A DNA stretch of 64,000 bases, taken from NCBI GenBank assembly GCA_964356125.1, contig CAYHHH010000008.1, positions 4,337 to 68,336 on the forward strand, read 5' to 3'. Of the stretch, positions 10,330 through 62,609 are shown in pieces (within the stretch, counting starts at the first letter, position 1; each line of letters begins with the position of its first letter). The position numbers and the translations under genes are program-made. The notes beneath the pieces were generated by a model. The model saw nothing but the letters and a program-made list of their open reading frames with translations. It did not search any database and was not told the DNA's origin. This DNA is from an uncultured Bifidobacteriaceae bacterium (GTDB taxonomy: Bacteria; Acidobacteriota; Vicinamibacteria; Vicinamibacterales; JAMQPK01).

Positions 10330-10330
10330 C

Positions 10331-12676: not shown

Positions 12677-12706
12677 CGTCGGCGAGCCCGACTAAGGAGG
12701 TTTTGC

Positions 12707-13561: not shown

Positions 13562-13580
13562 CGGCCAGCCCTCTTCCTAG

Positions 13581-15214: not shown

Positions 15215-15228
15215 TCGAAAGAGAACTC

Positions 15229-18685: not shown

Positions 18686-18697
18686 CGCGGCCACGGG

Positions 18698-22923: not shown

Positions 22924-22925
22924 GC

Positions 22926-24664: not shown

Positions 24665-24683
24665 CAGAAAGGAACCCACGAGC

Positions 24684-26615: not shown

Positions 26616-26657
26616 CCGCCGCTGGAAACTGTCTATTGTGATCGGCTGACCTGGCGG

Positions 26658-33644: not shown

Positions 33645-34441
33645 TTGTGACTGCCTGCGATCTCCTCGCCCTGGGGATGGACGCCTGTGACAGGTTTCAT
33701 GTTCTCAATGTGCAGCCCATTCTTGTTCGCACTAAACCCGACGGCACGGCTGTGACGCGCGTTGACACCGAGATCGACCTTTTCTTGCGCGCGCGCTTGA
33801 TACGTGTGGTGCCAGACGCGGGGTGGTTGTCGGAAGAGAGTGGCGCCGATCCCGATCGGCTCACTCGCTCGTGCTGCTGGGTCGTCGATCCGCTGGACGG
33901 CACGAAGGAGTTCGCTCGAGGCATTCCTGAGTGTGCGATATCGGTTGCACTGGTTCACCACGGGGTTGCGGTTGCGGCAGTGGTCGTCAATCCCTTCAAC
34001 GGGCTGGCCGCGGCGTGCGGCACCGATGGCACCTGGATCGCCTCTGGAGAGGGATCCAGCCGGCCGCGCGCGGCAAGCCTGATGACTGCCGGCGCCAGTG
34101 TCAGCCGCACGGAAGTGGAAGACGGTTCGATCACGCCGTTTCTTGAGCGGGTCGGGACCGCGCGCCCGATTGGCAGTGTGGCGTACAAGCTGTTGCGCGT
34201 CGCGGTTGGCCTCGACGACTTGACGTTCTCGGTACAGCCTAAGTCTGAATGGGACATCTGCGGCGGCGTGGCCCTTCTCGCGGCGCAGGGATTGGCGTTC
34301 GAGCGGCTCGACGGCCGGACCCAGGTGTTCAATCAGGCTGCGACGCGGATTCCGGTGGGGTTCGTCGCTGGCCCTCCTCACCTTGCCCGCGAACTTGCCA
34401 GCCAACTCCGATCGGCGCTGCCGACTGAGGGTGCCTCCTGA
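33641..34441 (+). CDS. Inositol-monophosphatase-family phosphatase, likely 3'(2'),5'-bisphosphate nucleotidase (CysQ-like)
   Basis: WVVDPLDGTKEF and WDICGGVALL IMPase/CysQ motifs. The cluster also encodes PAPS synthesis and a sulfotransferase. Confidence 0.75.
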   Translation: MIVTACDLLALGMDACDRFHVLNVQPILVRTKPDGTAVTRVDTEIDLFLRARLIRVVPDAGWLSEESGADPDRLTRSCCWVVDPLDGTKEFARGIPECAISVALVHHGVAVAAVVVNPFNGLAAACGTDGTWIASGEGSSRPRAASLMTAGASVSRTEVEDGSITPFLERVGTARPIGSVAYKLLRVAVGLDDLTFSVQPKSEWDICGGVALLAAQGLAFERLDGRTQVFNQAATRIPVGFVAGPPHLARELASQLRSALPTEGAS

Positions 34442-36329: not shown

Positions 36330-37127
36330 GTGAGTATTTCGGTGCCTGTGCCTTCATATACGGTTGTCATTCCCGCTCGCATGGCGTCGTCACGCTATCC
36401 CGGCAAGCCGCTCGAGTTGATTCTCGGCTTGCCGATGGTCGAGCACGTGCGGCGGCGGGCGCTGCTGGCGGCCGGCGCCTCAGAGGTCGTCGTCGCCACC
36501 TGTGACGACAGCATTCTTGCTGCGGTCACGGCGGCCGGTGGCCGGGCCGTGATGACCGCCGACACCCACGAGCGTTGCACCGATCGCATTGAGGAGGCCA
36601 TGCGCTCGCTGCCCGGTGAGATCGTGGTCATGGTGCAGGGCGACGAGCCGCTGTTGATGCCCGATGCGGTCTCGCGGATCGCGCAGCCGTTGCTCGATCG
36701 CGCCGACGTGAGCTGCACCAACCTGCTGTCGCCGCTCGAGAGCGACGCCGATCTCGACAACCCGAACATTGTGAAGGCCGCCTGCGATCGGTCCGGCCGC
36801 ATCATGTTTTTCACCCGCGCCCGGATTCCGTACTACCGCAGCCGCGTCGACTGTCCGATCTACCGGCAGACCGGCATCATGGGGTTCCGCACCGGCCTGT
36901 TGCGCGCCTACGCGGCGATGCCCGAAACGCCGTTCGAGCGCGCCGAGTCGGTCGACATGCTGCGCCTGCTCGAGCACGGCCATGCGATTCAGGGCGTCGT
37001 GGTCGACTATCCGACGGTCGGCGTCGACCGGCCGGAGGACGTGCCGCTGGTCGAGCGCATTCTCCGCGAGAATGCGGTCCAGCGCGATATTCACGCCCGC
37101 ATCCAAGGGAGAGGTCCGGTCCAATGA
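36330..37127 (+). CDS. KdsB-family cytidylyltransferase (CMP-ulosonic acid synthetase-like)
   Basis: VIPARMASSRYPGKPL, VVVATCDD, HERCTDRI, VQGDEPL and GVDRPEDV, colinear with CMP-Kdo synthetase motifs. Confidence 0.8.
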   Translation: MSISVPVPSYTVVIPARMASSRYPGKPLELILGLPMVEHVRRRALLAAGASEVVVATCDDSILAAVTAAGGRAVMTADTHERCTDRIEEAMRSLPGEIVVMVQGDEPLLMPDAVSRIAQPLLDRADVSCTNLLSPLESDADLDNPNIVKAACDRSGRIMFFTRARIPYYRSRVDCPIYRQTGIMGFRTGLLRAYAAMPETPFERAESVDMLRLLEHGHAIQGVVVDYPTVGVDRPEDVPLVERILRENAVQRDIHARIQGRGPVQ

Positions 37128-38155: not shown

Positions 38156-39156
38156 AGACCGTTGTGTCGCTGCAGGATCTGCTCGACGGCGAAATCCGGC
38201 CGCAGGCGCTGATCGCCGAGTATCAGGGATTGGTCGACCGCGACCTCAGGCAATGGTGGGCGGCGCATCCGCTTCGCGCGGTGCCGTGCCCGGCGTGCCA
38301 GAGCGATCGATCGACGCCGGCCTTCGAGCGGTTCGGCGCCCGTTACTGCCAGTGCGAGGGCTGTGCCTCGTTGTTCGTCTCGCCGCGCCCGGACGAAGCG
38401 GCGCTGGTCGAGTTCTACCGCGATGCACCGGCGGCGAAGTTCTGGCGCGAGCGGATCTGGCCGACCACGGCGGCGACGCGCCGCGAGAAGCTGGCGCGGC
38501 CCCGCGCGGAGTGGGTCAACGAAGGGCTTGCCGAGTATGCGCCGAAGGCGGTCAGTGGTCTCGACATCAGTCCGTACGGTGGCGCCGTGGCCGAAGAACT
38601 GGCGCGCGCCGGACGGCCGATGATGGCGGCAGCGTGGCTGGCCGATCTCGATATTCCGTCGCCGGTCGACGGTGTCACCGTGCGGCCGTCGCTCATCACC
38701 GGTCTGTCGGCAATCGGGCCAAGGGATTTCGTGACCGCGTTCGACGTCCTCGACCGCGCCGCGGACGTCCCGGCGCTGATGGCCGCGGTCGCCGAGGTGT
38801 TGCCGCCCGGCGGACTGTTGTTCCTCACGGCGACCAACGCCGATGGCTTCGACCTGCAGGTCCTGTGGTCCAAGGCGCCGACGCTGGCGCCTCCCGACAA
38901 GCTCAACGTGTTGTCGGTCGACGGCCTGCTGAAGCTGCTGTCGGGTCCGGAATGGGAAGTGCTGGAGTTCAGCACCCCAGGCTTGTTCGATGTCGAGCAA
39001 GTGCGGCGGGCGGTCGCCGCCGACCCCACCGGTGATTGGCCCAGGCCGGTGCGCCGTTTGCTGGCGCGCGGCGGCGGCGCGCTCGACGATTTCCAGGAAT
39101 TCCTCCAGCGCCATCGCCTGGCGTCATTTGCCCGCCTCGTCGTGCGGCGGCGGTAA
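38152..39156 (+). CDS. Zn-ribbon-containing methyltransferase-fold protein (degenerate SAM motif I)
   Basis: ATG 38152 ATGA-coupled. CPACQS...CQCEGCASLFVSPRP Cys pairs. Motif I reads LDISPYGG instead of DxGxGxG. Paralog of 40603..41610 and 12707..13561. Confidence 0.6.
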   Translation: MKTVVSLQDLLDGEIRPQALIAEYQGLVDRDLRQWWAAHPLRAVPCPACQSDRSTPAFERFGARYCQCEGCASLFVSPRPDEAALVEFYRDAPAAKFWRERIWPTTAATRREKLARPRAEWVNEGLAEYAPKAVSGLDISPYGGAVAEELARAGRPMMAAAWLADLDIPSPVDGVTVRPSLITGLSAIGPRDFVTAFDVLDRAADVPALMAAVAEVLPPGGLLFLTATNADGFDLQVLWSKAPTLAPPDKLNVLSVDGLLKLLSGPEWEVLEFSTPGLFDVEQVRRAVAADPTGDWPRPVRRLLARGGGALDDFQEFLQRHRLASFARLVVRRR

Positions 39157-39173
39157 GAGAAGGGACGAAGCCA

Positions 39174-39968
39174 GTGCTCGCAGCCGAGATCAAAGCCAAG
39201 CTGAAGCGGGGCGAAGTGAGCCTCGGGTCGTGGATGTCCATGGCCCATGTGTCGATCGCCGAGATCCTCGCTTCGGCGGGATACGACTGGGTGGTGATCG
39301 AGACCGAACACACCGCGATCGACAACCACGAGGTGTTGCGCCTGCTGCCCGCAATCGAACATGCCGGGGCGGTACCGCTCGTGCGGCTGGCATGGAACGA
39401 CGCCATCCAGTGCAAGGCCGTGCTCGATTCCGGCGCTGCCGGGGTGCTGGTGCCCATGGTGAATTCGCGCACCGAAGCCGAGCTCGCCGTGAAAGCAGTG
39501 AAGTACCCGCCGATGGGTACCCGCGGCGTCGGCCTCGCGCGGGCGCAACATTACGGTGAGCGGTTCGCCGAGTACGTTGCGCAGGCCAACGATTCGACCT
39601 TGCTAATCGTGCAGATCGAGCACGTGGATGCAGTGCGCAACATTGAGGAGATTCTCGACGTGCCCGGCATCGACGGCACGTTCATCGGACCGTACGACCT
39701 GTCCATGTCGATGGGCCTACCCGGCCAGCTCGACCATCCCGATATTCTGCAGGCACGTCGCCGCGTCCTCGAGGCCACCAAGGCCCGGGGCCTTGCACCG
39801 GGTATCCACCTGGTGCATCCGGACCGGGCAGTTGCCGACATTGCTTCGGTCATCGCCGAGGGCTACCAGTTCATCGCCCTGGGTACCGACATTCTGTTCC
39901 TGGGCGATTCGTGCCGCGCCGTCCAGCGCGCCACGGCCGCCGCGGTGTCAGCCGTCGCGCCGAAGTGA
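39174..39968 (+). CDS. HpcH/HpaI-family class II (metal-dependent) pyruvate aldolase
   Basis: GTG 39174 inside ORF 39036..39968. GSWMSMAHVSIAEILASAGYDWVVIETEH, VRLAWND, VLVPMVNS, YPPMGTRG, IEHVDAV and GPYDLS. Confidence 0.85.
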   Translation: MLAAEIKAKLKRGEVSLGSWMSMAHVSIAEILASAGYDWVVIETEHTAIDNHEVLRLLPAIEHAGAVPLVRLAWNDAIQCKAVLDSGAAGVLVPMVNSRTEAELAVKAVKYPPMGTRGVGLARAQHYGERFAEYVAQANDSTLLIVQIEHVDAVRNIEEILDVPGIDGTFIGPYDLSMSMGLPGQLDHPDILQARRRVLEATKARGLAPGIHLVHPDRAVADIASVIAEGYQFIALGTDILFLGDSCRAVQRATAAAVSAVAPK

Positions 39969-40606
39969 GCCGCGTCCGCGCACTGGTTCTCGATTTCGAT
40001 GGTGTGATCCTCGAGTCGAACGATCTGAAGACGGCGGCATTCGACGCCGTGTTTTCGCGGTTTCCCGAACACCAGGCCGCGATGATGGCGTTTCACCACG
40101 CTCATGTCGCCGAATCACGCTACGTCAAGTTCCGGCACCTGGCGACCGCACATCTCGGCCGGCCTGCCGATGACCCGATCGTCGAAGAGCTGGTCACTGG
40201 ATTTTCAACCGAGATGCAGGCCCGTCTTGCACGGTGCCCGATGGTCGCAGGCGCCGACGCGTTCCTGGATCGCGTGCGCGGCCGCTTACCGTTGTACCTC
40301 GCCTCGATGACTCCCGCCGCCGAACTCGACGACCTGCTGGCGCTTCGTGGTCTGCGGGCGACCTTTACTGGGGTCTACGGATGCCCGCCGTGGCCCAAGG
40401 AGCAGGCCTTGAACGAAATTGTGGCCGTGCACGGCCGCGACGGACTGCTGTTCATCGGCGATTCGGCTGGCGATCAACGCGCGGCCGCGCGGACCGGCAT
40501 CGAATTCATCGGCCGTGACAGCGGCTTGCCGTTCGACGAGCCGCTTCCGCGGTCGTATCCCAACATGGTCGAACTCCTCTCAGCCATCGACGAGCGTTTG
40601 CCATGA
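39965..40606 (+). CDS. HAD-superfamily hydrolase/phosphatase
   Basis: GTG 39965 GTGA-coupled. DxD motif VLDFDGVILES, ASMTP and IGDSAGD. Paralog of 30353..31024. Confidence 0.8.
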   Translation: MSRVRALVLDFDGVILESNDLKTAAFDAVFSRFPEHQAAMMAFHHAHVAESRYVKFRHLATAHLGRPADDPIVEELVTGFSTEMQARLARCPMVAGADAFLDRVRGRLPLYLASMTPAAELDDLLALRGLRATFTGVYGCPPWPKEQALNEIVAVHGRDGLLFIGDSAGDQRAAARTGIEFIGRDSGLPFDEPLPRSYPNMVELLSAIDERLP

Positions 40607-41610: not shown

Positions 41611-43556
41611 CGGCTCGGCGGCTGCTGGTCCTCGACTCGTACGATGCATCGATCGTGCGGCAGATTACCGGCGACGGCCGGGACTGGGATGTCCTGCTGC
41701 TGGGCATCGATGAACGGTGGTTCCGGCGGCTGTCGCCGGAGCTGGTGCCGGCCGACGATCGCGTGCGCTACCTGGACCTGACGAGCGTCGCCGCGCAGGC
41801 GCACGAGCAGGTCCGTGAGTTCGTGCTCGGGACGGTTGCCATGCTGGGGCACCAGCCGGTCGACGGCGTACCACTATGGCAGGCGCTCGCATCGGCCGGC
41901 TCATCGTGGTGGTACCTCGAAACCACTGAGAAGGGCCCTTACCGGACGCCGCTCGTGTCTCAGCTCTACGCGCTCGCGCTCTTCGCGCAGGTCCGGGAGC
42001 GCACGAGGTATACCTCCCATGTCGTCGCCACGCGCCATTCGTGGCTGGCGCGCGCGGCCTCGTCCCTCGATCGCTGCGCCGTCTCTCGACTCGGCGCCTC
42101 GCTGCCGGCGCCACCCTCACAGCCACGGCGCGACTATCTGCGGCATGCGGCCACCGCCGCCGCGACCGTCGCGGTCGCACGGCTTGCCGCCTGGCGCGGA
42201 CGATGGCCTCGTATCGCGTTGCCGGCTGGACGAACCTGGGTGTTCAGTTTTCTGCCGGCATGGTGGACCAGACCGTTGGACCCGCAGTTGGCCAGCGAGC
42301 GTTTTTTCCCGGCGCCACCTGCCGGGGTTGCGTTTGTCGGCTGGGTCCACACGCCGCAGTTGCTGTGGCGGTCGCGACGGGAGTTGGCCGAGGTGATCGC
42401 CGCCCGGCAGATTCTGGTGCTCAACCGGCTCGTGCCATGGCGGACTGTGCTTGGGCTCCTGTCGCCTCGGCGGTTCTTCCGTTTCATGCGCATCGTTGAT
42501 GGCATTCGGCGGCTGCCCGAGTTGAAGTTCGCCGGTGTCGATGCCGGGCCGGTGGTGGCGCGCGACCTCGAACGCTCGCTGACGGGCGGCGAAGTCTTTC
42601 AAGACCAGATGCTGGCTGAAGCAATGGCGCGGTTTGCGCGCCAGCAGCAGCCCCGCATAGTGGCCTATCGAGCAGAGTTTCAACCGGCGGAGCAAGCCGT
42701 GCTGACAGGTCTGCGAGGGCTGTCTCGCGCCGTGGGCTTTGTCCACTATCCGTTCGGCCGCCGTTACCTTTCGATGTACGAATCGCCAGCAACAACCAGC
42801 CCGGGAACTCCTGAACGCTTGGCGCCCGACGCGTTCATCAGTTGCGGCGCCGTCGGACGGGAGCACCTGATCGACGCCGGCTACCAGGCGGAGCGCATTG
42901 CGCTCTGCGGCCCGCAGCGTCACCCGAACCTGGTGACGCGGCTGCGGCAGCCGATCGATCGCACCGCGACGCGAGGCGCGCTCGGTCTCGATCCCGGCAC
43001 GCCCGTTATGCTGGTGGCGATTGCGATCGAGCAAGCGGACACGGAAGCGTTGTTCGGAGCGCTCCTGGACGCGCTCGACGCCTTTGGCCCGTGGCGGATC
43101 TGGATTCGCACACATCCCAACCGTCCCGGCGGAGATTCCGCCCTGAAGTACGCGCTGGCATCGCTTGGGCCTGAGCGCGCGGTCTTGGTTCCCGACGCCG
43201 TTTCACTCTATGACACGTTGATCGCGAGCGATGTGTTGGTGACGATCGGTTCGACCCTCGCATTCGAGGCCCTGGCCCTTGGATGTCAGGCGATCGCCTT
43301 CGAAACGCCGGCCACGTATGCCGCGACCTCGCTCGCCGAGTTTTCGGACGCGATCCACGTCGTGCACGATGCGGCAGAGCTGCAGCGGGCGCTCGATGAG
43401 ATCATTGGCCGCGCCCCAGCGGCGCTGGCGCGGCAAGCGTGCTGGCATCGTACGGTGACCCGGATGCTTGGCGACCTGTCGACCCCGCTCCCGCGACAGT
43501 TTGACCACGCCATGGCCGGACTCGGCCTGGCGCCAATGCCCGAAGGAGAATCATGA
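41607..43556 (+). CDS. Large hypothetical protein with GT-B-like C-terminal half (candidate ulosonic-acid transferase, KpsC/KpsS- or TagF-like)
   Basis: GTG 41607 GTGA-coupled. C-terminal IWIRTHPN ... DVLVTIGSTLAFEALALGCQAIAF resembles the K/R-x-HP and S-T-x-x-E-A motifs of the Capsule_synth/TagF GT-B families. Weak motif-level call only. Confidence 0.45.
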   Translation: MTARRLLVLDSYDASIVRQITGDGRDWDVLLLGIDERWFRRLSPELVPADDRVRYLDLTSVAAQAHEQVREFVLGTVAMLGHQPVDGVPLWQALASAGSSWWYLETTEKGPYRTPLVSQLYALALFAQVRERTRYTSHVVATRHSWLARAASSLDRCAVSRLGASLPAPPSQPRRDYLRHAATAAATVAVARLAAWRGRWPRIALPAGRTWVFSFLPAWWTRPLDPQLASERFFPAPPAGVAFVGWVHTPQLLWRSRRELAEVIAARQILVLNRLVPWRTVLGLLSPRRFFRFMRIVDGIRRLPELKFAGVDAGPVVARDLERSLTGGEVFQDQMLAEAMARFARQQQPRIVAYRAEFQPAEQAVLTGLRGLSRAVGFVHYPFGRRYLSMYESPATTSPGTPERLAPDAFISCGAVGREHLIDAGYQAERIALCGPQRHPNLVTRLRQPIDRTATRGALGLDPGTPVMLVAIAIEQADTEALFGALLDALDAFGPWRIWIRTHPNRPGGDSALKYALASLGPERAVLVPDAVSLYDTLIASDVLVTIGSTLAFEALALGCQAIAFETPATYAATSLAEFSDAIHVVHDAAELQRALDEIIGRAPAALARQACWHRTVTRMLGDLSTPLPRQFDHAMAGLGLAPMPEGES

Positions 43557-44149
43557 CGTTCGCAGCGCAGTATTTTAAAGAAGCCATCCAGATCCTGGAA
43601 CAACTTGACGCCGCCGCAGTCGAGCGGATGGCCGACGTGCTCGTCGATCTCCGCACCCGTGGCGGCCGCCTGTTCCTGCTCGGCGTGGGCGGCGGCGCCG
43701 GCCACGCTTCGCACGCGGTCAACGACTTTCGGAAGATCGCCGGCATCGAGGCGTATTCGCCGGTCGACAACGTCTCGGAGCTGACCGCGCGCGCCAACGA
43801 CGAAGGTTGGGACACCACCTTTGCCGCGTGGCTCGCCGGCAGCCGCCTCAGGGCCGAGGATGCGGTTCTGGTGTTTTCGGTCGGCGGCGGCAGCCTCGAC
43901 AAGAACGTCAGCGCCAACATCGTTCGCGCCCTGGAGCTCGCCGTCGAGCGCAAGGCCACTGTTCTCGGCATCGTCGGCCGCGATGGTGGCTTCACCGCCA
44001 AGGTCGCGACCGCCTGTGTCATCGTGCCGACCGTGAATCCGGCGCACGTGACGCCTCATACCGAATCGTTCCAGGCCCTGGTCTGGCACGCGCTGGTGGC
44101 GCACCCGAAGCTTCAGCAGGTTACGAACAAGTGGGAATCGCTCAAGTGA
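43553..44149 (+). CDS. SIS-domain sugar-phosphate isomerase (GmhA/KdsD-like)
   Basis: RLFLLGVGGGAGHASHAVNDF and VFSVGGGS SIS motifs. Confidence 0.85.
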   Translation: MTFAAQYFKEAIQILEQLDAAAVERMADVLVDLRTRGGRLFLLGVGGGAGHASHAVNDFRKIAGIEAYSPVDNVSELTARANDEGWDTTFAAWLAGSRLRAEDAVLVFSVGGGSLDKNVSANIVRALELAVERKATVLGIVGRDGGFTAKVATACVIVPTVNPAHVTPHTESFQALVWHALVAHPKLQQVTNKWESLK

Positions 44150-52208: not shown

Positions 52209-53014
52209 GAATCATGGGCCGGCCTGTTCGCCGCTACGTCGCCAACCTTGCCCGCCTGCACCTGCACGTCCGCGACGTCGCGCGGACGATCGTGCTCTTC
52301 AAGCAGCCGTGGTCGGTGCTCCGCGACTATGTGCGCCGCCAGCCGCCCGCGTCGGGCTGCCTCGAGTTGCGTTCGGGCCTGCGGATCTTCGTATCGCACG
52401 ATCCGCTCGACGTGGTGACGGTCGTCGGCATCTTCGTGCGCCGCGACTACGGGCTGGTCGAAGCTGGTAGCGAGGTGATCGACATTGGCGCCAACATTGG
52501 CGTGTTCACGCTGTTTGCCGCGCATTGCGGCGCGGCGCGCGTCCACTGTTACGAGCCCAGCGCCGAGGCCTTTGCCTGTCTCGCCCGGAACGTGCGCGAG
52601 AACGCACTGGAGTCACGCGTCGCCGCCCACCAAGTGGCCGTCGGCGCCGGTCCCGAGCGCTCCGTGATGTTTCCGCGCCAGTCGAGCGTCTTCAACGCGA
52701 TCGGTGCCACCCGCGACGGCGAATGCGACCCGGTTCGCCTCGAGACGCTGGCCACGGTCGTCGCGCGGCTCGATCGTCCGGCACTGATCAAGCTCGATTG
52801 CGAGGGTGAAGAAGAGTTCATCCTTTCCGACGCCAGCGACGACACGGTCCGGAAGGTCACGCGCATTCGCTTCGAGTATCACAAGGGACGCGGCGCCGCG
52901 ATCATGGCGAACCTTGTCGCGCGGGGCTTTGCGGTCGAACATGTGTGGGCCGCCGACGACAAGGGCGGCCTAGTCTGGATGCGCCGCCTCGATAGCGTGG
53001 CGGCACGGCCATGA
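52205..53014 (+). CDS. FkbM-family methyltransferase
   Basis: VIDIGANIGVFTLFAA...YEPSAEAF, characteristic of FkbM. GTGA overlap. Confidence 0.85.
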   Translation: MRIMGRPVRRYVANLARLHLHVRDVARTIVLFKQPWSVLRDYVRRQPPASGCLELRSGLRIFVSHDPLDVVTVVGIFVRRDYGLVEAGSEVIDIGANIGVFTLFAAHCGAARVHCYEPSAEAFACLARNVRENALESRVAAHQVAVGAGPERSVMFPRQSSVFNAIGATRDGECDPVRLETLATVVARLDRPALIKLDCEGEEEFILSDASDDTVRKVTRIRFEYHKGRGAAIMANLVARGFAVEHVWAADDKGGLVWMRRLDSVAARP

Positions 53015-54186
53015 CGCTAGCCCTGATTTGCCCAGATGGCTTGTCGGTGCTGCTGTTTTGCAAGGGCATCATCAAGATTCTCCGCCGTGACGGCGCGACC
53101 CGCGTGGTGGTCGTGACGGAGGCGGGCCCGCATCGCGCCGAGCTCGAGGCTCTGGGGGTGAGCGTTCGCGACCTGCCGATGGACCGATTCATCGACCCGG
53201 CGGGCGATCTGGTCTTCGTCTGGCGGCTGACCCGGATCCTGCGGGAGGAGCGCTGCACCGCCGTGCTGAACTTCTCGACTAAGTCCAACATCTACGGCGC
53301 GATGGCCGCACGGCTGGCCGGGGTCCCGGCCGTTGTGTCGCACGTCGTCGGTCTCGGGGCCTCGTTCTTGCCCGACCGCTCGTGGCGGGGGATCGCCATG
53401 CGCGCGACGATGCGCGGGCTCTACCGCCTGTGTGGACGTCTGAGCGACTACGTGTGGTTCACCAATCGCAACGATCGGGAGTACTTTATCGAGCGCGGGT
53501 TGGTGCCGGCGGCCAAGACCCTGCTGACGCGGAACTACCTTGACACCACTGAATACGTGGCAGAGCGGGAGTCCACGGCGGAGGTTGCCGGCCTGCGGCT
53601 CGAACTCGGGCTCGCCCCCGGGCACGTGGTGGTGGTGATGGTGGCGCGGTTGATCTGGCCAAAGGGCGTGCGGGAGTTCGCCGATGCGGCGCGGCTGCTG
53701 CGCGACTCGCACCCCGCGCTGCGGTTCTTGCTCGTCGCTCCGCCCGAGCCGCCCAGCCTGCAGACCGTTCCCGAAGCATTTGTCCGCGAACGCGAGCAAG
53801 ACGGCAACTTTCGCTGGCTTGGCTTCCGCCGCGATGTCCGCCGGGTCTACGCCCTCACCGATATCGGCGTGCTGCCGTCGTACTACAAGGAAGGCGGCTA
53901 TCCGCGGGCCCTGCTGGAACCAATGTCGATGGGCAAACCGATCATTACCACCACCAGTGATGACTGCCGCGGTACCGTAGACGATGGCGTCAATGGCCTG
54001 CTGGTACCGCCGCGTGACGCCGTCGCGCTGGCAACGGCGATCGCCAGGCTCGCAGATGACGCGTCGTTGCGCGTGCGGTTCGGGCTGGCGTCACGCCGCA
54101 AAGTGGTCGCCGAGTTCGAGGAGAGCACCATCCTGCGAGGCGCCCTGCGCCAAGCCGGTCTTTTGCCCGACGCGTCTGAGGCATGA
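53011..54186 (+). CDS. Glycosyltransferase family 4 (GT-B, GT1-type)
   Basis: EGGYPRALLEPMSMGKPIITTTSDDCRGTVDDGVNGLLV. Confidence 0.85.
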   Translation: MTLALICPDGLSVLLFCKGIIKILRRDGATRVVVVTEAGPHRAELEALGVSVRDLPMDRFIDPAGDLVFVWRLTRILREERCTAVLNFSTKSNIYGAMAARLAGVPAVVSHVVGLGASFLPDRSWRGIAMRATMRGLYRLCGRLSDYVWFTNRNDREYFIERGLVPAAKTLLTRNYLDTTEYVAERESTAEVAGLRLELGLAPGHVVVVMVARLIWPKGVREFADAARLLRDSHPALRFLLVAPPEPPSLQTVPEAFVREREQDGNFRWLGFRRDVRRVYALTDIGVLPSYYKEGGYPRALLEPMSMGKPIITTTSDDCRGTVDDGVNGLLVPPRDAVALATAIARLADDASLRVRFGLASRRKVVAEFEESTILRGALRQAGLLPDASEA

Positions 54187-55028: not shown

Positions 55029-55859
55029 ATGACAGACGACATGCAAACGGTTGAACAGCGCAAGCTCGAAGAGATTGCCTTCCACGACAAGCTCCGTGAA
55101 GGCCAGCACGAACAACGCTGGTCGCCAGAGGCCGAAGCCCGAGTCAAGGACGATCCGCTATGGTCGAATTTCAAGTTCTATTCGATCGAAGCCGATAGCC
55201 TCGCACTCATGCGAAAGTGGGTTGGTGAGCGGCTGCCTGGTGCGACCGTGTTGGACTACTGTTGTGGCAATGGCGACGAGGCTCTGGCGGCCGGTCACAA
55301 CGGTGCCCGGCGCGTCACCGGCATCGACATCTCGCCGGTGTCGATCGATAACTGCCGTGGGCGCGCGCAGCTGGAAGGCTTGAGCGGGGTGATCGACTTC
55401 CAAGTAATGGATGCCGAGGCGCTCGATTTCCCGGACGCCCATTTTGACCTGATCATGGAATACGGCGTTCTTCATCACCTGGAACTCGACAAGGGGATGG
55501 CCGAACTCGCACGGGTAATGAAACCGGGCGGCGCCATGGTGTGCACCGAAACGCTGGGCCACAACCCTCTGATCCGTTGGTATCGCCGCCGCACTCCTGA
55601 CCTGCGGACGGCGTGGGAGGTCGAGCACATTCTGACCCGCCCCAGCTTCGAAATCATGCGACGGCACTTCGGAAAAATAGAGATGTCGTTCTTCCATTTG
55701 GCGACCTTAGCCGCCGTCCCGTTGCGGCACACCCCCCTGTTTGGACCGGCGCTGGCGGTGCTGCGGGCGGTGGACCGCGCCGCACTGAGTGTGCCGGGCC
55801 TCCAGTGGCACGCCTGGCAGATCGTCTTCAAGCTTTCGGAGCCGATCCGTCGTGGCTGA
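55029..55859 (+). CDS. Class I SAM-dependent methyltransferase
   Basis: VLDYCCGNG motif I, GIDIS, FDLIMEYGVLHH and MKPGGAMV. Confidence 0.85.
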   Translation: MTDDMQTVEQRKLEEIAFHDKLREGQHEQRWSPEAEARVKDDPLWSNFKFYSIEADSLALMRKWVGERLPGATVLDYCCGNGDEALAAGHNGARRVTGIDISPVSIDNCRGRAQLEGLSGVIDFQVMDAEALDFPDAHFDLIMEYGVLHHLELDKGMAELARVMKPGGAMVCTETLGHNPLIRWYRRRTPDLRTAWEVEHILTRPSFEIMRRHFGKIEMSFFHLATLAAVPLRHTPLFGPALAVLRAVDRAALSVPGLQWHAWQIVFKLSEPIRRG

Positions 55860-57106: not shown

Positions 57107-57166
57107 ACTATGTTGGACGCTGGGATCGCTCGCGTCCCCGTCAATGGCCGGCGACTTCGCGCCCAA

Positions 57167-57883
57167 ATGGACCTGATGGATAACCTCCAGATCAAGATCT
57201 TCGCCGACGGCGCCGAACTCGCCGGGATGCTGCAGTTCTATCGCGAACCGTACATCAAGGGATTCACGACGAACCCCACACTGATGCACAAGGCCGGCAT
57301 CCGCGACTATGCCGGGTTTGCGAGGGAGATCTTGGCGGCGATACCCGATCGTCCGATTTCCTTTGAAGTGTTTTCCGACGAGTTCGACGAGATGGAGCGC
57401 CAGGCGCGCGCGATCGCGTCGTGGGGCCAGAACGTCTACGTCAAGATCCCGGTCACCAATACGCGCCGCGAGCCGGCTTACAGGCTGATTCGCAGGCTGT
57501 CCGAGGCCGGCGTGCAGGTCAACGTCACCGCACTGATGACACTGGCGCAGGTCCGCGACGTGGTGGAGGCGGTCAAGGATGGAGCGCCCTCGAACATCTC
57601 GGTCTTTGCCGGCCGCATCGCCGACACCGGCCGCGATCCGGTGCCCCTGATGGCGGCCGCAGTTGCGCTGTTACAGTTGGCGCCCCGAGCCGAGTTGATC
57701 TGGGCGAGTCCGCGCGAACTGCTGAATATTTACCACGCCGATTCGGTCGGCTGTCACATCATCACCGTCACGCACGACGTGCTCAAGAAATTGTCGCTCG
57801 TGGGTAAGAACCTCGACGACTATTCATTGGATACCGTGCGCATGTTTCATACTGACGCCCAGCGTGCGGGCTTCGCCCTCTGA
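57167..57883 (+). CDS. Transaldolase-family protein (short Fsa/TalC-like type)
   Basis: IKIFADGA, GFTTNPTL and VYVKIPVT (Schiff-base lysine region). Start ambiguous (ATG 57110, 57167 or 57176). Confidence 0.8.
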   Translation: MDLMDNLQIKIFADGAELAGMLQFYREPYIKGFTTNPTLMHKAGIRDYAGFAREILAAIPDRPISFEVFSDEFDEMERQARAIASWGQNVYVKIPVTNTRREPAYRLIRRLSEAGVQVNVTALMTLAQVRDVVEAVKDGAPSNISVFAGRIADTGRDPVPLMAAAVALLQLAPRAELIWASPRELLNIYHADSVGCHIITVTHDVLKKLSLVGKNLDDYSLDTVRMFHTDAQRAGFAL

Positions 57884-57895
57884 GCACAGCCCAGC

Positions 57896-58696
57896 TTGAC
57901 TCCTGACTTCCTCGCCCTCACCGAGATCGCTGGCGACGACGTAACCACCGAGCAGGTAGAGCGTCTGGCCCGTCGCTACTACTGGGCGGAGCCGTACTGC
58001 CGTGAACGCGATGTCGTCGAAGTGGCCTGCGGCACTGGCCAGGGCGTCGGCCACCTCGCCCGCCACGCGCGCTCCATGGCGGCCGGCGACTACACCGAGC
58101 CGTTGCTCGCGATCGCTCGACGTCACTACGGCGCTCGCTTTGACTTCCAGCACTTCGACGCGCAGCAAATGCCGTTTGCGGACCGCTCGCGGGACGTGAT
58201 CGTGATCTTCGAGGCGCTGTACTACATTCCGTCTCTGGACCGATTCTTTGCCGAATGCGCCCGGGTGCTGCGCCCGGGCGGCGTGCTGCTGATTGCCAGC
58301 GCCAACAAGGACTTGTTCGACTTCAATCCGAGCCCGGACAGCTATCGTTACCTCGGTGTCTGCGAGTTCGAGGATGAACTCGCGCGCTTTGGGTTCGCGA
58401 CGACCTGCTACGGTGATACTCCGGTCGGTAAAGTGTCGGCGCGCCAGCAGCTGCTGCGGCCGGTCAAAGCCATGGCTGCCAGGCTCGGCCTGATTCCCAA
58501 ATCGATGAAGGGCAAGAAGCTCCTCAAGCGCCTGGTGTTCGGCGGGCTGGTGCCGATGCCGGCGGAGATCACGGCCGCGACCGCGCCGGCGGTGGCCCCG
58601 ACGCCGTTGCCCGCAGGCCGGCCCGACACGGATCACAAGGTTATTTTTTGCGTCGCCACGCTCGTTCCTGATGGCCCCACTCCTCTGCAATCCTGA
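57896..58696 (+). CDS. Class I SAM-dependent methyltransferase
   Basis: VVEVACGTGQG motif I, VIVIFEALYY and LRPGGVLLI. TTG start. Confidence 0.8.
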   Translation: MTPDFLALTEIAGDDVTTEQVERLARRYYWAEPYCRERDVVEVACGTGQGVGHLARHARSMAAGDYTEPLLAIARRHYGARFDFQHFDAQQMPFADRSRDVIVIFEALYYIPSLDRFFAECARVLRPGGVLLIASANKDLFDFNPSPDSYRYLGVCEFEDELARFGFATTCYGDTPVGKVSARQQLLRPVKAMAARLGLIPKSMKGKKLLKRLVFGGLVPMPAEITAATAPAVAPTPLPAGRPDTDHKVIFCVATLVPDGPTPLQS

Positions 58697-58705
58697 CTTG
58701 CCCCA

Positions 58706-59818
58706 ATGACGCCCCGCTCGATTCCATTCTTTCCATATCCGCAGTTGTTCATGAGCCAGGAACACGAGTTACTGGCCGTCATGACCGACGTGTGCCGCCG
58801 TGGCGCTTACATTCAGCAGAGGGACTGCCGTGAGTTCGAGTCGGCGCTGGCGGCGTTTACCGGCGCCAAGCACGCCTTTGGCGTCGCGAACGGCACCGAC
58901 GCGATCATCATCGGTTTGAAGGCGGCCGGCATCGGCCCCGGCGACGAGGTCATTCTGCCGTCGCATACCTACATTGCGACCGCCGCATCCGTGCACATGG
59001 TCGGAGCAATCCCAGTGCTCGCCGAGTGCGGCGCCGACCACATGCTCGACGCGGCCGATGCCGAGTCGCGCGTGACCCCGCGTACCAAGGCGATCATGCC
59101 GGTGCAGGTGAACGGCCGGACCTGCGACATGGATGCCATGGCGGTGGTCGCGACGCGCAACAATCTTCTGATCTGTGAGGACGCGGCGCAGGGCCTCGGC
59201 TCCCGCTTCAATGGTCGGAGCGCCGGCACCTTCGGCGTGTTCGGAACTATCAGTTTCTATCCGGCCAAGCTGCTGGGCTGCTTCGGCGACGGCGGCGCAA
59301 TTCTCACCAACGACGATCGCGTCGCTGGCCAGATTGCCCTGCTCCGGGATCACGGCCGCAACGACGACGGCCGGGTCGTGGCGTGGGGCTACAACTCCCG
59401 CCTCGACAACCTGCAGGCCGCCGTCCTCAATCACAAACTCAGATCGTTCCCCGCCGACATCGAGCGCCGCCGCGCCATCGCCGCGCAGTATCAGTCCGGG
59501 CTCGGTGACCTCGCAGAGCTGAACCTGCCGCCCGCGCCCGGCGCCGACCCTCGCCATTTTGATGTCTACCAAAACTACGAGTTCGAAGCCGATCGTCGAG
59601 ATGCGCTGAAGGCTCACCTCGAGCAGCAGGGCGTGCGGACCATCATCCAATGGGCCGGCACGCCGGTGCATCAGTTCCGCGAACTGGGCTTTACCGTTGA
59701 ACTGCCGGTCACCGACGCGTTCTTCGCGCGCTGCCTGATGCTGCCGATGAACGTGGCCCTGAGCGACGAGGACGTCGCCTACGTGATCGCCGCGATCAGG
59801 AGTTTCTATGGCAGGTAG
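58706..59818 (+). CDS. DegT/DnrJ/EryC1/StrS-family PLP-dependent sugar aminotransferase
   Basis: ANGTDAIIIGL, CEDAAQG and ISFYPAKLLG (PLP lysine). Confidence 0.9.
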   Translation: MTPRSIPFFPYPQLFMSQEHELLAVMTDVCRRGAYIQQRDCREFESALAAFTGAKHAFGVANGTDAIIIGLKAAGIGPGDEVILPSHTYIATAASVHMVGAIPVLAECGADHMLDAADAESRVTPRTKAIMPVQVNGRTCDMDAMAVVATRNNLLICEDAAQGLGSRFNGRSAGTFGVFGTISFYPAKLLGCFGDGGAILTNDDRVAGQIALLRDHGRNDDGRVVAWGYNSRLDNLQAAVLNHKLRSFPADIERRRAIAAQYQSGLGDLAELNLPPAPGADPRHFDVYQNYEFEADRRDALKAHLEQQGVRTIIQWAGTPVHQFRELGFTVELPVTDAFFARCLMLPMNVALSDEDVAYVIAAIRSFYGR

Positions 59819-59821
59819 CCG

Positions 59822-60871
59822 ATGACCTGGCGGAACCTCGGCGAGCTCGCCGACCCGGCGCTGCGCCACGGCCCCATCGACATCAGCGACGAGACACCGG
59901 AAGTACTGATCCCGCAGCTGCGCTCGATGCTGCGGATCCGCCGTGCCGAGCAGCACCTCGCCCTGCACCGCCAGGCCGGCCTGATTGGCGGCCCGGTCCA
60001 CCTGGGTGTCGGTCAGGAAGCGGTGGCCGTCGGTGTCTCGCGGCACCTCCGCCCGTCGGATCGCATCTTCGGCGCCCACCGATCGCATTCCCACGTCCTC
60101 GCCCTTGGCTCAAGCCTGCGCGGCCTGTTCGCTGAAGTACTGGGCAAGAGCACTGGCCTGGCGCGCGGGATGGGAGGCTCAATGCACTTGTGGGATCAAC
60201 CGCGCGGGTTTTTTGGTTCGGTGCCGATCGTGGCCGGCGCCGTGCCGCTGGCGGTCGGCGCCGGACTCGCCGCCAAACTGCAGGGCACTGACGATGTGGC
60301 GGTGAGCTATTTCGGTGATGGCGCCGTTGAGGAGGGCGCAGTCCACGAGTCGCTCAATCTCTCGCGCATGCTGAAGGCACCGGTGATCTTTGTCATCGAA
60401 AACAATCTGTTCTCAAGTCACATGGAGATCCGCCTGCGACAGCCATTCACCTCGACCGCTCGTTTCGCGGCCGTGAACGACATGCCGGCTGAGGTGGTTG
60501 ATGGCAACGATGTGGCCGCAGTCGGCGTCGCCGCCGAACGGCTGGTGGCTCGAGCGCGACGGGGAGAGGGACCAGGCCTCATCGAGGCCGTGACCTTCCG
60601 CTGGTACGGCCACGTCGATCACCGTGAGGACATCGACGTCGGTGTTAATCGTTCGACTGAAGATTTGGCCAATTGGCGCGCGCGCGATCCGGTTTCGCGG
60701 CTGGTCATGGCGATGGAAGAACGCGGGTGGTGGTCGGCGACCCGTCACGAATCGCTGCTGGCCGAAATCGACGCTGAAGTGACGACGGCGTGGGATCAAG
60801 CCATGCAAGATCCGTATCCAGACGCTGACACCCTGCTCGGTTGCGTCTACGCGAAGGCGCCGCGGCGATGA
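59822..60871 (+). CDS. Thiamine-diphosphate-dependent dehydrogenase E1 component, alpha subunit (stand-alone, no E2/E3 in window)
   Basis: HLGVGQEAVAVG, MGGSMHL and TPP-binding YFGDGAVEEGAVHESLN...VIFVIENN. Confidence 0.9.
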   Translation: MTWRNLGELADPALRHGPIDISDETPEVLIPQLRSMLRIRRAEQHLALHRQAGLIGGPVHLGVGQEAVAVGVSRHLRPSDRIFGAHRSHSHVLALGSSLRGLFAEVLGKSTGLARGMGGSMHLWDQPRGFFGSVPIVAGAVPLAVGAGLAAKLQGTDDVAVSYFGDGAVEEGAVHESLNLSRMLKAPVIFVIENNLFSSHMEIRLRQPFTSTARFAAVNDMPAEVVDGNDVAAVGVAAERLVARARRGEGPGLIEAVTFRWYGHVDHREDIDVGVNRSTEDLANWRARDPVSRLVMAMEERGWWSATRHESLLAEIDAEVTTAWDQAMQDPYPDADTLLGCVYAKAPRR

Positions 60872-61869
60872 CACCTGCTACGCAGCGATTCAACTACGGG
60901 ACCGCCATTCTCGCGGCCTTCGAGTACCTGCTGAGCACACACCCGGAAGTCTTCGTCATCGGCCAGGGACTGTGGAGTCCCTGGTATGTCGGCAACTCGA
61001 TGACCGAGCTGGACAAGAAGTTCGGGGCCCATCGGGTGATCGATACACCGGTCTCGGAACTGGCCTGTACGGGTGCCGGCGTCGGCGCCGCTCTCGCCGG
61101 GATGAAGCCGATCGTCGTGCATCCGCGCGTCGACTTCATGCTCTACGCCATGGACTCGGTCGTCAACCAGGCCGCCAAGTGGAGTCACATGTTCGGGGGG
61201 CAGGCGCATCCGGGCGTCACGATCCGAGCGATCATCAATCGCGGCGGTGAACAGGGCGCCCAGCACTCACAAGCCTTGCACGCGTGGTTTGCCCACGTGC
61301 CGGGCCTTCGCGTCGTGATGCCGGCCACGGTCGCCGATGCGCGTGACCTGCTGGTGGCTGCGGTGCTGTCGCCCGATCCGGTGATCTACATAGACGATCG
61401 CTGGCTCTACGATCAGGAGGAGGAACTGGCGCCCATCACCGTCCTCGATCTTTCGACGGAGGGACCGCGTTGCCTCGCGGAGGGCAGCGACCTGACCATT
61501 GCCGCCGCCGGCTTTTCAGTTCGACTCGCGATGCAAGCCCGCGAGATCCTGCAGTCGTGTGGCGTGTCAGCGGAAGTCGTTGACATTCGCGTCCTCAACC
61601 CATTTCAACCGGAGGTGGTGGTCACCTCTGTGTCCAAGACGGGCCGGCTGCTCGTGGTTGATGGTGGCTGGCGCAATGGCGGCTTCGCCGGCGAAGTGAT
61701 GGCGTCGGCGGCCGAACGCCTCGAGCCGTCTGTGTGGCTGGCCAAGCCGGCTCGTGTGACACTGCCAGATGCTCCCGCGCCGTCGTCGCGTGTCCTCGAA
61801 GAAATCTACTACCCGACACCGAACGCGGTGGTTGCCGCCGCTCTGGCGATGGTTGGTCGCCGGCAGTGA
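60868..61869 (+). CDS. Thiamine-diphosphate-dependent dehydrogenase E1 component, beta subunit (transketolase-like)
   Basis: ATG 60868 ATGA-coupled. VIDTPVSELACTGAGVGAA, MPATVADARDLL and the C-terminal transketolase domain VVDIRVLNPF. Confidence 0.9.
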   Translation: MTPATQRFNYGTAILAAFEYLLSTHPEVFVIGQGLWSPWYVGNSMTELDKKFGAHRVIDTPVSELACTGAGVGAALAGMKPIVVHPRVDFMLYAMDSVVNQAAKWSHMFGGQAHPGVTIRAIINRGGEQGAQHSQALHAWFAHVPGLRVVMPATVADARDLLVAAVLSPDPVIYIDDRWLYDQEEELAPITVLDLSTEGPRCLAEGSDLTIAAAGFSVRLAMQAREILQSCGVSAEVVDIRVLNPFQPEVVVTSVSKTGRLLVVDGGWRNGGFAGEVMASAAERLEPSVWLAKPARVTLPDAPAPSSRVLEEIYYPTPNAVVAAALAMVGRRQ

Positions 61870-62609
61870 TCAAACGGCTGCTGGACATCGTGGCCGCCGT
61901 GGCCGGGCTGGTGCTTGCATCACCGGTCATGCTGCCCGTCATGTTCCTGGTGTGGCGGCAGGATGGCCACTCGCCCTTCTACGTCGCGCCCCGGGTTGGC
62001 GAGGGGGACCAGGTGTTCCGAATGATCAAACTGCGTTCGATGATCAAGAACGCTGATCGTACCGGCGTCGATTCCACCGGTGCCGACGACCAGCGCATCA
62101 CTCCGGTGGGCCATTTCATCCGGCGGTACAAGCTCGACGAAATCACCCAGCTGTGGAATGTTCTGAAGGGCGACATGAGCTTGGTGGGTCCGCGCCCGAA
62201 CGTCAAGCGGGAGACAGACTTGTACACGCCGATCGAGCGGCGGTTGCTCGAGGTCAAGCCCGGCATCACCGACTTCTCGTCGATCGTGTTTTCGGACGAG
62301 GGTGAGATTCTTCGCGACCAGCCCGATCCCGACATCGCTTACAACCAGCTGATCCGGCCGGGCAAGAGTCTGCTTGGCCTCTTCTATGTACAGCACCGGA
62401 GCCTGTGGGTCGATGTGAGATTATGCGTCCTCACGCTCGTGGCAGTCGTATCGCGTCGCCGTGCGTTGTCGGGAGTCCACGCGATGCTCCACGGCCTTGC
62501 GGCGCCCATTGAACTGTTGGCGCTCGCGTCGCGCCAGGCACCGCTGGTGCCGATGCCGCCGCCAGGAGCGACGCGGCTCGTGACCTCGCGTGACGGCAGC
62601 TGGACCTAA
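61866..62609 (+). CDS. Small monotopic phosphoglycosyl transferase (PglC/WbaP C-terminal domain family), initiating undecaprenyl-phosphate sugar-phosphate transferase
   Basis: GTG 61866 GTGA-coupled. KRLLDIVAAVAGLVLASPV re-entrant helix, FRMIKLRSM, DEITQLWNVLKGDMSLVGPRP and PGITD. Confidence 0.9.
   Translation: MIKRLLDIVAAVAGLVLASPVMLPVMFLVWRQDGHSPFYVAPRVGEGDQVFRMIKLRSMIKNADRTGVDSTGADDQRITPVGHFIRRYKLDEITQLWNVLKGDMSLVGPRPNVKRETDLYTPIERRLLEVKPGITDFSSIVFSDEGEILRDQPDPDIAYNQLIRPGKSLLGLFYVQHRSLWVDVRLCVLTLVAVVSRRRALSGVHAMLHGLAAPIELLALASRQAPLVPMPPPGATRLVTSRDGSWT

Follow-up and report, generated by a model that had tools for sequence, protein, structure and literature searches.

A conserved cassette of stand-alone E1 alpha/beta genes and a phosphoglycosyl transferase in bacterial surface-glycan loci: a candidate route to a C-branched, lipid-linked starter sugar

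Several antibiotics contain sugars with a carbon branch made by alphaKADH2 enzymes, which are E1 alpha/beta pairs without E2 that install a pyruvate-derived acetyl group on C3 or C4 keto sugars (PMC12247030). Such branching is found in avilamycin, paulomycin, aldgamycin, kosinostatin, trioxacarcin and kibdelomycin (PMC12247030; PMC4753412), with the ketone of the branch subsequently being reduced, methylated, oxidized or, as in kibdelomycin, transaminated (PMC12247030). In paulomycin it is the aldo-keto reductase Pau7 that reduces the acetyl branch (PMC4753412), and for KbDH-alpha/beta carboligation of a ketone was found in vitro (PMC12247030). For sugar branching in lipopolysaccharide (LPS), only YerE-like enzymes, which belong to another thiamin diphosphate (ThDP) superfamily, have been described (PMC12247030, PMC9306805). 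Sugar branching by ThDP-dependent E1 alpha/beta pairs has so far been documented only in actinomycete antibiotic pathways, with one enzyme tested in vitro. Here we analyzed an E1 alpha/beta pair in a stretch of 64,000 nucleotides (the window) from an uncultured bacterium assigned to the Vicinamibacterales (GenBank assembly GCA_964356125.1, contig CAYHHH010000008.1, positions 4,337 to 68,336), which is a single very large glycan locus on the + strand with about 65% G+C. We propose, with moderate confidence and by analogy to the antibiotic pathways, that the pair belongs to a cassette that builds a C-branched amino sugar, with which a surface polysaccharide would be started on its lipid carrier. 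An earlier reading of the sequence (the original prediction) had pointed to AviB1/AviB2 of avilamycin as a precedent for the pair; that precedent is real, and has since been extended by Pau11/12, AlmDI/DII and KbDH-alpha/beta (PMC4753412, PMC12247030).

The E1 pair lies in a block of genes (Table 1) that had been described as five consecutive genes, from a transaldolase to E1 beta. The list of open reading frames (ORFs) and Pfam confirmed all five on the + strand at the positions claimed; the gene directly downstream, encoding a small monotopic phosphoglycosyl transferase (PGT), had been missed, and the block had thus been ended one gene early. A species scan with one genome per species gave 80 loci with relatives of E1 alpha at 44-72% identity, and more than 100 metagenomic relatives had identities of 65-76%. 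A cassette of the type methyltransferase-DegT-E1 alpha-E1 beta-PGT recurs in about 80 species of more than 10 phyla (E1 alpha 44-76% identical across them), with carriers among Beta- and Gammaproteobacteria, Acidobacteriota (Vicinamibacterales), Gemmatimonadota, Nitrospirota, Nitrospinota (Nitrospinales), Chloroflexota, Bacteroidota and others, as well as among Cyanobacteria (Prochlorococcus, Synechococcus), SAR86, Pelagibacteraceae and Actinomycetota (acI Actinobacteria). The closest matches to the cassette of the window were found in metagenome-assembled genomes of Vicinamibacterales, at identities of 84% for DegT, 77% for the PGT and 76-78% for E1 beta, which makes an acidobacterial origin of the window likely. 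Strains in culture that carry the cassette are Prochlorococcus marinus MIT 9302 (L067, of the DegT type), Methylophilaceae LSUCC0665 (L045) and Polaromonas eurypsychrophila CGMCC 1.15322 (L018, of the aldo-keto reductase type).

To define the neighbours of the pair, all ORFs lying between -7 and +9 kb around E1 alpha were clustered without bias in 83 loci, and tblastn with the proteins of the window agreed with this clustering; the resulting counts are lower bounds because contig ends cut many of the loci. E1 alpha and E1 beta were each found in 81 loci, side by side in all 81, followed by the PGT in 71 (orthologues 43-77% identical), a DegT aminotransferase adjoining the pair in 69 (46-84% identical), a GT4 glycosyltransferase in 55, a PglF-like membrane 4,6-dehydratase in 45 (at most 9 kb from the pair and often directly after the PGT), a loose cluster of methyltransferases in 42, an aldo-keto reductase in 17 and a methyltransferase of the type seen in the window in 13. 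No other neighbour accompanies the E1 pair as constantly as the PGT. The gene orders differ with the same members kept, from the methyltransferase-DegT-E1a-E1b-PGT of the window to E1a-E1b-DegT-PGT-PglF, PglF-E1a-E1b-DegT-PGT and PGT-reductase-E1a-E1b-PglF, and minimal contiguous blocks such as PglF-E1a-E1b-DegT-PGT are found in loci L038, L056 and L049. A catalogue by Krug et al. (Angew. Chem., 2024, doi 10.1002/anie.202403535) is said to predict about 120 alphaKADH2 gene clusters. It may list some of these loci; literature searches for E1 pairs in O-antigen, capsule or exopolysaccharide clusters revealed no account of the cassette, and a PNAS survey of monotopic PGTs from 2024 makes no mention of E1 or transketolase neighbours.

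The view that the pair is a stand-alone sugar-pathway enzyme, acting outside any 2-oxoacid dehydrogenase complex, is supported by the features of its two subunits. In an alignment of 18 family members, the ThDP motif GDG...NN of E1 alpha (G165, D166, G167, N194 and N195) was invariant, as was the active-site His, and alignments to human pyruvate dehydrogenase (PDH) E1 alpha and to T. thermophilus E1 beta showed the conserved His and HSQ motifs. With the ThDP motif and active-site residues intact, the pair should be catalytically competent. Both subunits scored below every NCBIfam equivalog cut-off, with E1 alpha at 273 bits compared with 393.85 bits for PDH (TIGR03182, PDH_E1_alph_y) and at 200 compared with 411 bits for TIGR03181, and with E1 beta at 222 bits, under cut-offs of 321 and 454 bits. 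As had been claimed for the window, no E2 or E3 partner was found: tblastn with the E2, E3 and LipA proteins of three complete dehydrogenase operons gave zero matches, both in the window and across 85 related loci, and Pfam scans of essentially all credible ORFs of the window revealed no E2, E3 or lipoate domain, while the control operons (L174-L176) carried E2, with or without E3. A neighbour-joining tree of E1 alpha (200 bootstraps), including the cassette family, two other E2-less sequences (L086 and L087), the E2-linked L174-L176 and human PDHA1, had the cassette family monophyletic in 200 of 200 bootstraps and joined to L086 and L087 in 192 of 200, with L174-L176 and PDHA1 falling outside that E2-less grouping. 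The tree is supportive, not decisive, because the pairwise identities to both groups are similar. On the side of the dehydrogenases, the phylogeny suggested in the original prediction thus placed the E1 alpha family apart from E2-linked E1 and PDHA1, and the claim of a stand-alone pair was supported by the scores, the searches for E2 and E3, a monophyletic family that groups with two other E2-less pairs and the conserved cassette.

It could still be argued that the pair is a catabolic or housekeeping E1, for pyruvate, acetoin or branched-chain substrates, with its E2 and E3 encoded elsewhere and present in a glycan locus by chance. All of the E1 catalytic residues are kept, including the His used in lipoyl acylation, and the genome is incomplete, so that E2 and E3 genes could lie in another part of it. 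Such a chance placement agrees poorly with the same neighbours recurring in about 80 species of many phyla, with scores below all the cut-offs, with 85 loci devoid of E2 and E3 and with a clade separate from E2-linked E1, and we assign it a barely appreciable probability. We therefore keep to the reading of a stand-alone pair below.

Two further E2-less systems came up in these comparisons. L087 is an E1 alpha from a Streptomyces secondary-metabolite cluster. The best plasmid match to E1 alpha, pSALBX2 of Streptomyces albogriseolus, was considered as an AviB-like proxy and rejected, being part of a non-sugar secondary-metabolite cluster; its E2-less pair lies amid a P450, an ABC transporter and an AMP-ligase and was used as an orphan-E1 outgroup only. 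L086 is found on Azospirillum oryzae plasmid NZ_CP054615 (locus 6732-19087), where a more distant E2-less E1 alpha/beta pair of about 40% identity lies within a heptose locus (SIS and PfkB kinase) and has two DegT genes, short-chain dehydrogenases/reductases (SDRs), a radical SAM enzyme and a NUDIX protein as neighbours. Plasmids of several Azospirillum species carry comparable pairs, and that of L086 may represent a further case of E1-dependent sugar branching in polysaccharide synthesis.

The cassette resembles the alphaKADH2 systems (AviB1/AviB2, Pau11/Pau12, AlmDI/AlmDII and KbDH-alpha/beta) in having split E1 alpha and E1 beta subunits without E2 or E3, in having a nucleotide-sugar 4,6-dehydratase and a ketone-processing enzyme nearby (an aldo-keto reductase such as Pau7, or an aminotransferase as for kibdelomycin), and in sometimes including a methyltransferase. 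The same chemistry is predicted, with a pyruvate-derived acetyl group placed on a keto sugar to give a tertiary alcohol. The cassette differs in that its predicted acceptor is a keto sugar derived from uridine diphosphate (UDP)-N-acetylhexosamine (HexNAc) by a PglF-type dehydratase rather than a dTDP-deoxyhexose, in that its product would go to a PGT as the first sugar of a polysaccharide rather than to a natural-product glycosyltransferase, and in that its hosts are mostly Gram-negative or uncultured and belong to many phyla. YerE and the YerE-like ThDP flavoenzymes, known from yersiniose, erwiniose and caryophyllose in LPS and lipooligosaccharide, are alike in placing an acyl branch from a 2-oxo acid at C4 of a 4-keto-6-deoxy nucleotide sugar, with subsequent ketoreduction. 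However, YerE consists of a single chain, belongs to the decarboxylase (acetolactate-synthase-like) superfamily and acts on CDP-3,6-dideoxy-4-keto-glucose, whereas the E1 of the cassette has two subunits and comes from a different ThDP superfamily.

The enzymes next to the E1 pair are of types that would act on a ketone. The DegT protein has the pyridoxal phosphate (PLP) lysine motif SFYPAKLLG, and its best matches in the PDB were DesV, WbpE and QdtB at 202-240 bits (DesV 240, WbpE 225), compared with 81 bits for PglE (1o61) and 92 bits for PseC (2fn6), the C4 aminotransferases of the bacillosamine and pseudaminic acid pathways. An aldo-keto reductase (PF00248, 211 bits) lies directly beside the E1 pair in 17 loci (L007 9060-9965, L018, L009, L035 and others), mostly without the cassette DegT. 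When 53 assessable loci were classified, 35 had only DegT beside the pair, 9 only the aldo-keto reductase, 2 both and 7 neither (Fisher test uncorrected for phylogeny, p = 1e-4), a ketone-processing partner thus adjoining the pair in 46 of 53 with the two types being largely mutually exclusive. Both are present in the Pelagibacteraceae loci L043 and L050, and in L055. The aldo-keto reductase found in the window itself, at 7527-8519, was rejected as an orthologue of that of the cassette at 25% identity.

The methyltransferase of the block, with orthologues of 52-71% identity directly upstream of DegT in 13 loci, is proposed to provide an optional tailoring step. A comparison with TylM1 and DesVI, which are sugar N,N-dimethyltransferases, gave no match, and its best PDB match, a glucose O-methyltransferase, was weak at 49.5 bits. 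A second methyltransferase further upstream (Table 1) falls in the loose cluster found in 42 of the 83 loci, often upstream of the cassette, at an identity of only about 30%. The glycosyltransferase at 53011-54186 in the window was rejected by sequence comparison as the conserved GT4 of the cassette.

That DegT and the aldo-keto reductase alternate would suit an aldehyde as well as a ketone, and the E1 pair could then instead be making a small non-sugar substituent, with a 2-oxo acid decarboxylated non-oxidatively to an aldehyde that is transaminated or reduced and later attached to the glycan. The window is rich in tailoring genes that would fit this idea (an HpcH aldolase, an ATP-grasp enzyme, an asparagine synthase and many methyltransferases). 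However, aldehyde release by E1 enzymes is poor, the substrates of DegT enzymes are nearly always ketones of nucleotide sugars or inososes, as judged from the list of PDB matches, and the tightest partners of the pair are a PGT and a UDP-N-acetylglucosamine (GlcNAc) dehydratase, with no ligase or transferase for a small substituent among them. We find this explanation improbable, and prefer the branching of a sugar.

The PGT lacks the fingerprints of PGTs for diacetylbacillosamine (diNAcBac). It keeps the DE dyad and the PRP motif, and lacks the GLLLP motif of diNAcBac-specific PGTs, its corresponding loop reading TGVDSTGADDQR; its alignment to PglC (8g1n) ends at residue 139, the C-terminal half not aligning. 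The GLLLP loop, together with an aromatic box/C-terminal extension, defines PGTs specific for UDP-diNAcBac (PMC10186338). We propose that the PGT loads a finished UDP-sugar onto the polyprenyl phosphate carrier, with the PglF/CapD-like membrane dehydratase of the window (Table 1) as a candidate supplier of the 4-keto-6-deoxy-HexNAc acceptor. The combination of a membrane UDP-GlcNAc 4,6-dehydratase, a DegT enzyme and a small PGT is shared with PglF-PglE-PglD-PglC (diNAcBac), WcfR/WcfS and WbgX/Y/Z (AAT/FucNAc4N). The cassette differs from these modules in its E1 alpha/beta pair, in having no PglD-type acetyltransferase between DegT and PGT and no acetyltransferase cluster among the conserved neighbours in the 83 loci, in a DegT that scores far lower against PglE and PseC than against DesV and WbpE and that in a minority of loci is replaced by an aldo-keto reductase, and in a PGT without the GLLLP motif and the PglC-like C-terminal half.

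A pathway can be proposed on this basis; the sequences show the gene content, the conserved cassette, the lack of E2 and E3 and the intact cofactor motifs, while the choice of acceptor, the site of branching and the sequence of reactions are taken from precedent. The PglF-like dehydratase would convert UDP-GlcNAc to UDP-4-keto-6-deoxy-HexNAc, whereupon an E1 alpha/beta heterotetramer would decarboxylate pyruvate on ThDP and the resulting hydroxyethylidene carbanion would attack the C4 ketone, giving a tertiary alcohol bearing a C-acetyl branch. DegT would then transaminate the exocyclic ketone to a 1-aminoethyl branch, or, in sister loci, the aldo-keto reductase would reduce it to a 1-hydroxyethyl branch. 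The methyltransferase would methylate the product, the PGT would move the sugar 1-phosphate to the polyprenyl phosphate carrier, and the conserved GT4 would extend the lipid-linked sugar. The idea of C-branching by the E1 pair, as put forward in the original prediction, is supported and extended by the conserved cassette, the absence of E2 and E3 and the antibiotic precedent, with the chemistry remaining a deduction. More tentatively, many bacteria from the sea and other environments may use a so far undescribed starter sugar, a UDP-HexNAc-derived 2-acetamido-2,6-dideoxy-4-C-(1-aminoethyl)hexose or its 1-hydroxyethyl analogue, which a separate clade of E2-less ThDP carboligases of E1 alpha/beta type would make; the carriers in this possible but somewhat doubtful version would be Prochlorococcus, SAR86, Pelagibacter, acI Actinobacteria, Acidobacteriota, Gemmatimonadota and Bacteroidota.

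Several points weigh against a C-branched starter sugar. We infer the activity of the cassette E1 family from gene content and precedent, and its likeness to AviB1/B2, Pau11/12 and KbDH is one of gene context and predicted chemistry, with E1 alpha being 40-42% identical to the E2-less proxies, barely above the 38-41% to E2-linked E1. We know of no glycan from a carrier organism that contains such a branched sugar. The alternation of DegT with the aldo-keto reductase is, as said, open to effects of phylogeny, and the tight packing of the transaldolase in the operon, described below, makes a local functional link to it possible. The only PglF-like gene of the window lies 55 kb upstream of the cassette, beside another DegT and a GNAT gene, and the dehydratase could serve that DegT-GNAT pair (483-2463) instead. 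Perosamine synthase, which acts at C4, matches DegT at 190 bits, such that similarity to PDB entries cannot assign the position of transamination. Finally, adjacent DegT, PGT and PglF genes also make up an ordinary module for 4-amino sugars (AAT/FucNAc4N), in which DegT would consume the C4 ketone.

The last of these points leads to an alternative in which DegT is an ordinary C4 aminotransferase producing a UDP-2-acetamido-4-amino-2,4,6-trideoxyhexose of AAT or bacillosamine type that the PGT moves, while the E1 pair acts otherwise on that sugar or on the glycan, for example by turning a 2-oxo acid into an acyl or hydroxyalkyl group with which the 4-amine is decorated, taking the slot of PglD. 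PglF, DegT and a small PGT together form a known initiating module for 4-amino-HexNAc (WcfR/WcfS, PMC11626204). The place in the gene order that an acetyltransferase would take is filled by the E1 pair, and GNAT genes are scattered through several of the cassette loci; the open position of DegT action and the distant PglF of the window would also agree with this alternative. However, no N-acylation by ThDP-dependent E1 enzymes is known that does not need an oxidant or a lipoyl acceptor, DegT is far nearer to DesV, WbpE and QdtB than to PglE or PseC, and the PGT lacks the diNAcBac motifs. The replacement of DegT by an aldo-keto reductase moreover fits a branch ketone better than a ring ketone at C4, considering the precedent of Pau7; the UDP-4-keto-HexNAc 4-reductases known to us are SDRs. 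We consider the alternative unlikely, though deserving more weight than the other alternatives discussed here, and the C-branched starter sugar remains our preferred reading.

Table 1. Coordinates within the window of the genes of the block and of the additional genes considered together with it.
Feature	Position	Strand	Family or score
Short transaldolase	57110-57883 (ORF opening at 57110)	+	TAL_FSA, E 8e-42
Class-I S-adenosylmethionine (SAM) methyltransferase	57896-58696	+	Methyltransf_11/25
DegT-family PLP aminotransferase	58706-59818	+	PF01041, 316 bits
E1 alpha (ThDP-binding)	59822-60871	+	PF00676 E1_dh, 215 bits
E1 beta	60841/60868-61869	+	PF02779 Transket_pyr + PF02780 Transketolase_C
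Small monotopic PGT	61866-62609	+	PF02397 Bac_transf, 172 bits
PglF/CapD-like membrane UDP-GlcNAc 4,6-dehydratase	2460-4334	+	Polysacc_synt_2 + CoA_binding_3
Second class-I methyltransferase	55029-55859	+	Methyltransf_11/25
SIS_2 sugar-phosphate isomerase (GmhA/LmbN-like)	43553-44149	+	PF13580

The genes of the block are closely packed, with intergenic gaps of 12 bp between transaldolase and methyltransferase, 9 bp between methyltransferase and DegT and 3 bp between DegT and E1 alpha. E1 beta, called on the source contig as a protein of 333 aa, shares its first 4 bp with the end of E1 alpha, and the start of the PGT overlaps the stop codon of E1 beta. Because of the 12-, 9- and 3-bp gaps and the 4-bp overlap the block looks like one operon. 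The true start of the transaldolase is probably at 57167 or 57176, because its homologues have about 238 aa. Long antisense ORFs run under the operon, at 58769-60094 (- strand, 441 aa), 57824-58765 (- strand) and 60413-60874 (- strand); we rejected these as genes, regarding them as shadows of the + strand genes in GC-rich DNA, with conservation of the sense genes alone accounting for their recurrence in related loci.

The transaldolase had been considered a partner of the E1 pair, in analogy to the lincomycin octose pathway in which LmbR acts with LmbN, LmbP, LmbK and LmbO. The protein scored above the NCBIfam cut-off of TIGR02134 (338.5 compared with 281.95 bits), and its Schiff-base Lys (VKIP) aligns with the lysine of the T. 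acidophilum transaldolase. Its relatives at 63-84% identity were collected from three long contigs and 80 metagenome loci, with counts taken from the 40 loci of at least 6 kb. The partnership was not supported: tblastn found the transaldolase in 0 of 85 E1-family loci, and the E1 pair was found in 0 of the 40 loci with a close transaldolase relative. These relatives have a cassette of their own, nearly always ending a series of GHMP kinase, NTP_transferase, SIS_2, HAD and transaldolase genes (HAD in 38 of the 40 loci, SIS in 37, GHMP kinase in 33 and NTP_transferase in 30), which is usually preceded by SDR-UGDH-SDR-GFO (loci L088-L172; for example L089 5183-8732). With no co-occurrence and a separate cassette, a jointly made C3-extended sugar therefore has no support.

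It had also been stated that all families acting with LmbR occur in the window, which was correct for SIS and HAD as families. The SIS_2 isomerase, 69% identical to that of the transaldolase cassette in L089, is however the only partner from that cassette in the window, 14 kb upstream of the transaldolase; the HAD genes at 30353-31024 and 39911-40606 are not GmhB/LmbK-like, and GHMP kinase, NTP_transferase and GmhB-like HAD gave no tblastn match in the window at E 1e-3. Nor were the kinase, NTP_transferase and HAD partners found up to the end of the source contig, about 7 kb past the PGT. The only kinases of the window are an adenosine 5'-phosphosulfate (APS) kinase and a pyruvate kinase, and its only nucleotidyltransferase is of CMP-sugar type (CTP_transf_3, 36330-37127).

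A single LmbR-style pathway, in which transaldolase and E1 pair jointly produce a chain-extended (C3) or higher-carbon amino sugar, could be argued for from the transaldolase sharing the operon and ending 12 bp before the methyltransferase, from the SIS isomerase in the window and from the match between the families of the usual transaldolase cassette and LmbP/O/N/K/R. In view of the mutual absence from each other's loci and of the missing kinase, NTP_transferase and GmhB-like HAD, this pathway seems very unlikely and already largely refuted by comparative genomics. The families of the five-gene cassette of the transaldolase relatives equal those of the GDP-D-glycero-alpha-D-manno-heptose pathway (GmhA, HddA, GmhB and HddC) plus a transaldolase, or of LmbR/N/P/K/O; the window differs from these heptose and octose pathways in holding only the transaldolase and the distant SIS, with kinase, phosphatase and nucleotidyltransferase missing. 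The two genes may well be what is left of a pathway of GDP-heptose type, or of an LmbR-like octose pathway, or else scattered members of one, an assignment that we regard as about evenly balanced, and the transaldolase most likely supplies sedoheptulose 7-phosphate. The block as a whole could, with similar balance, be two unrelated modules that happen to be co-transcribed, one being methyltransferase-DegT-E1 alpha-E1 beta-PGT and the other the transaldolase. The transaldolase seemed part of a foreign pathway through adjacency alone.

Elsewhere in the window, the DegT gene at its beginning (481 aa including an extension at the N-terminus), a gene for a GNAT acetyltransferase and the PglF-like dehydratase gene make up a second, bacillosamine-like set for a starter sugar (483-4334), which may draw on the same keto sugar as the E1 cassette, in competition with it. 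The regions 5365-16889 and 36330-37127 form a nonulosonic-acid pathway, with a PseB-like dehydratase, a PseC-like DegT, two NeuB homologues (one weak and one strong), a GNAT and a CMP-transferase. Less usual members of these regions are genes for an ATP-grasp enzyme, a class-III aminotransferase, an aldo-keto reductase, a metallophosphoesterase and a TIM barrel resembling xylose isomerase. An HpcH/HpaI-type pyruvate aldolase is encoded at 39036-39968 and is not conserved in related E1 loci. Aldolases of this type make 4-hydroxy-2-oxo acids, which are long-chain donors for YerE-like sugar-branching enzymes (PMC9306805), and that of the window could be a source of another donor for the E1 pair. 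Genes for APS kinase, ATP sulfurylase, pyruvate kinase and an inositol-monophosphatase/CysQ-like protein (19902-22923 and 33641-34441) suggest a dedicated supply of 3'-phosphoadenosine 5'-phosphosulfate (PAPS) for a sulfated glycan, with the pyruvate kinase perhaps supplying phosphoenolpyruvate (PEP). Four consecutive ORFs of 260, 322, 653 and 633 aa (22914-28559), with no Pfam family save one faint RHS-repeat match, lie directly upstream of an ABC exporter (28563-30356).

The enzyme type and the chemistry discussed here are already known from antibiotic pathways; what appears to be new is a distinct and widespread E1 clade that is coupled to a UDP-GlcNAc dehydratase and a PGT in surface-polysaccharide loci of many phyla, for which the annotation 'Pyruvate dehydrogenase E1' is misleading. 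If the proposal is true, branching by E1 enzymes would be a widespread route to the lipid-linked starter sugar of bacterial surface polysaccharides, moving this chemistry from actinomycete antibiotics into primary cell-envelope biosynthesis. The orphan small PGTs of the cassette would gain a candidate substrate, and the family would provide a large and diverse set of carboligases forming tertiary alcohols, of interest for biocatalysis. A new branched amino sugar would also be predicted in ecologically dominant lineages of the sea and the soil.

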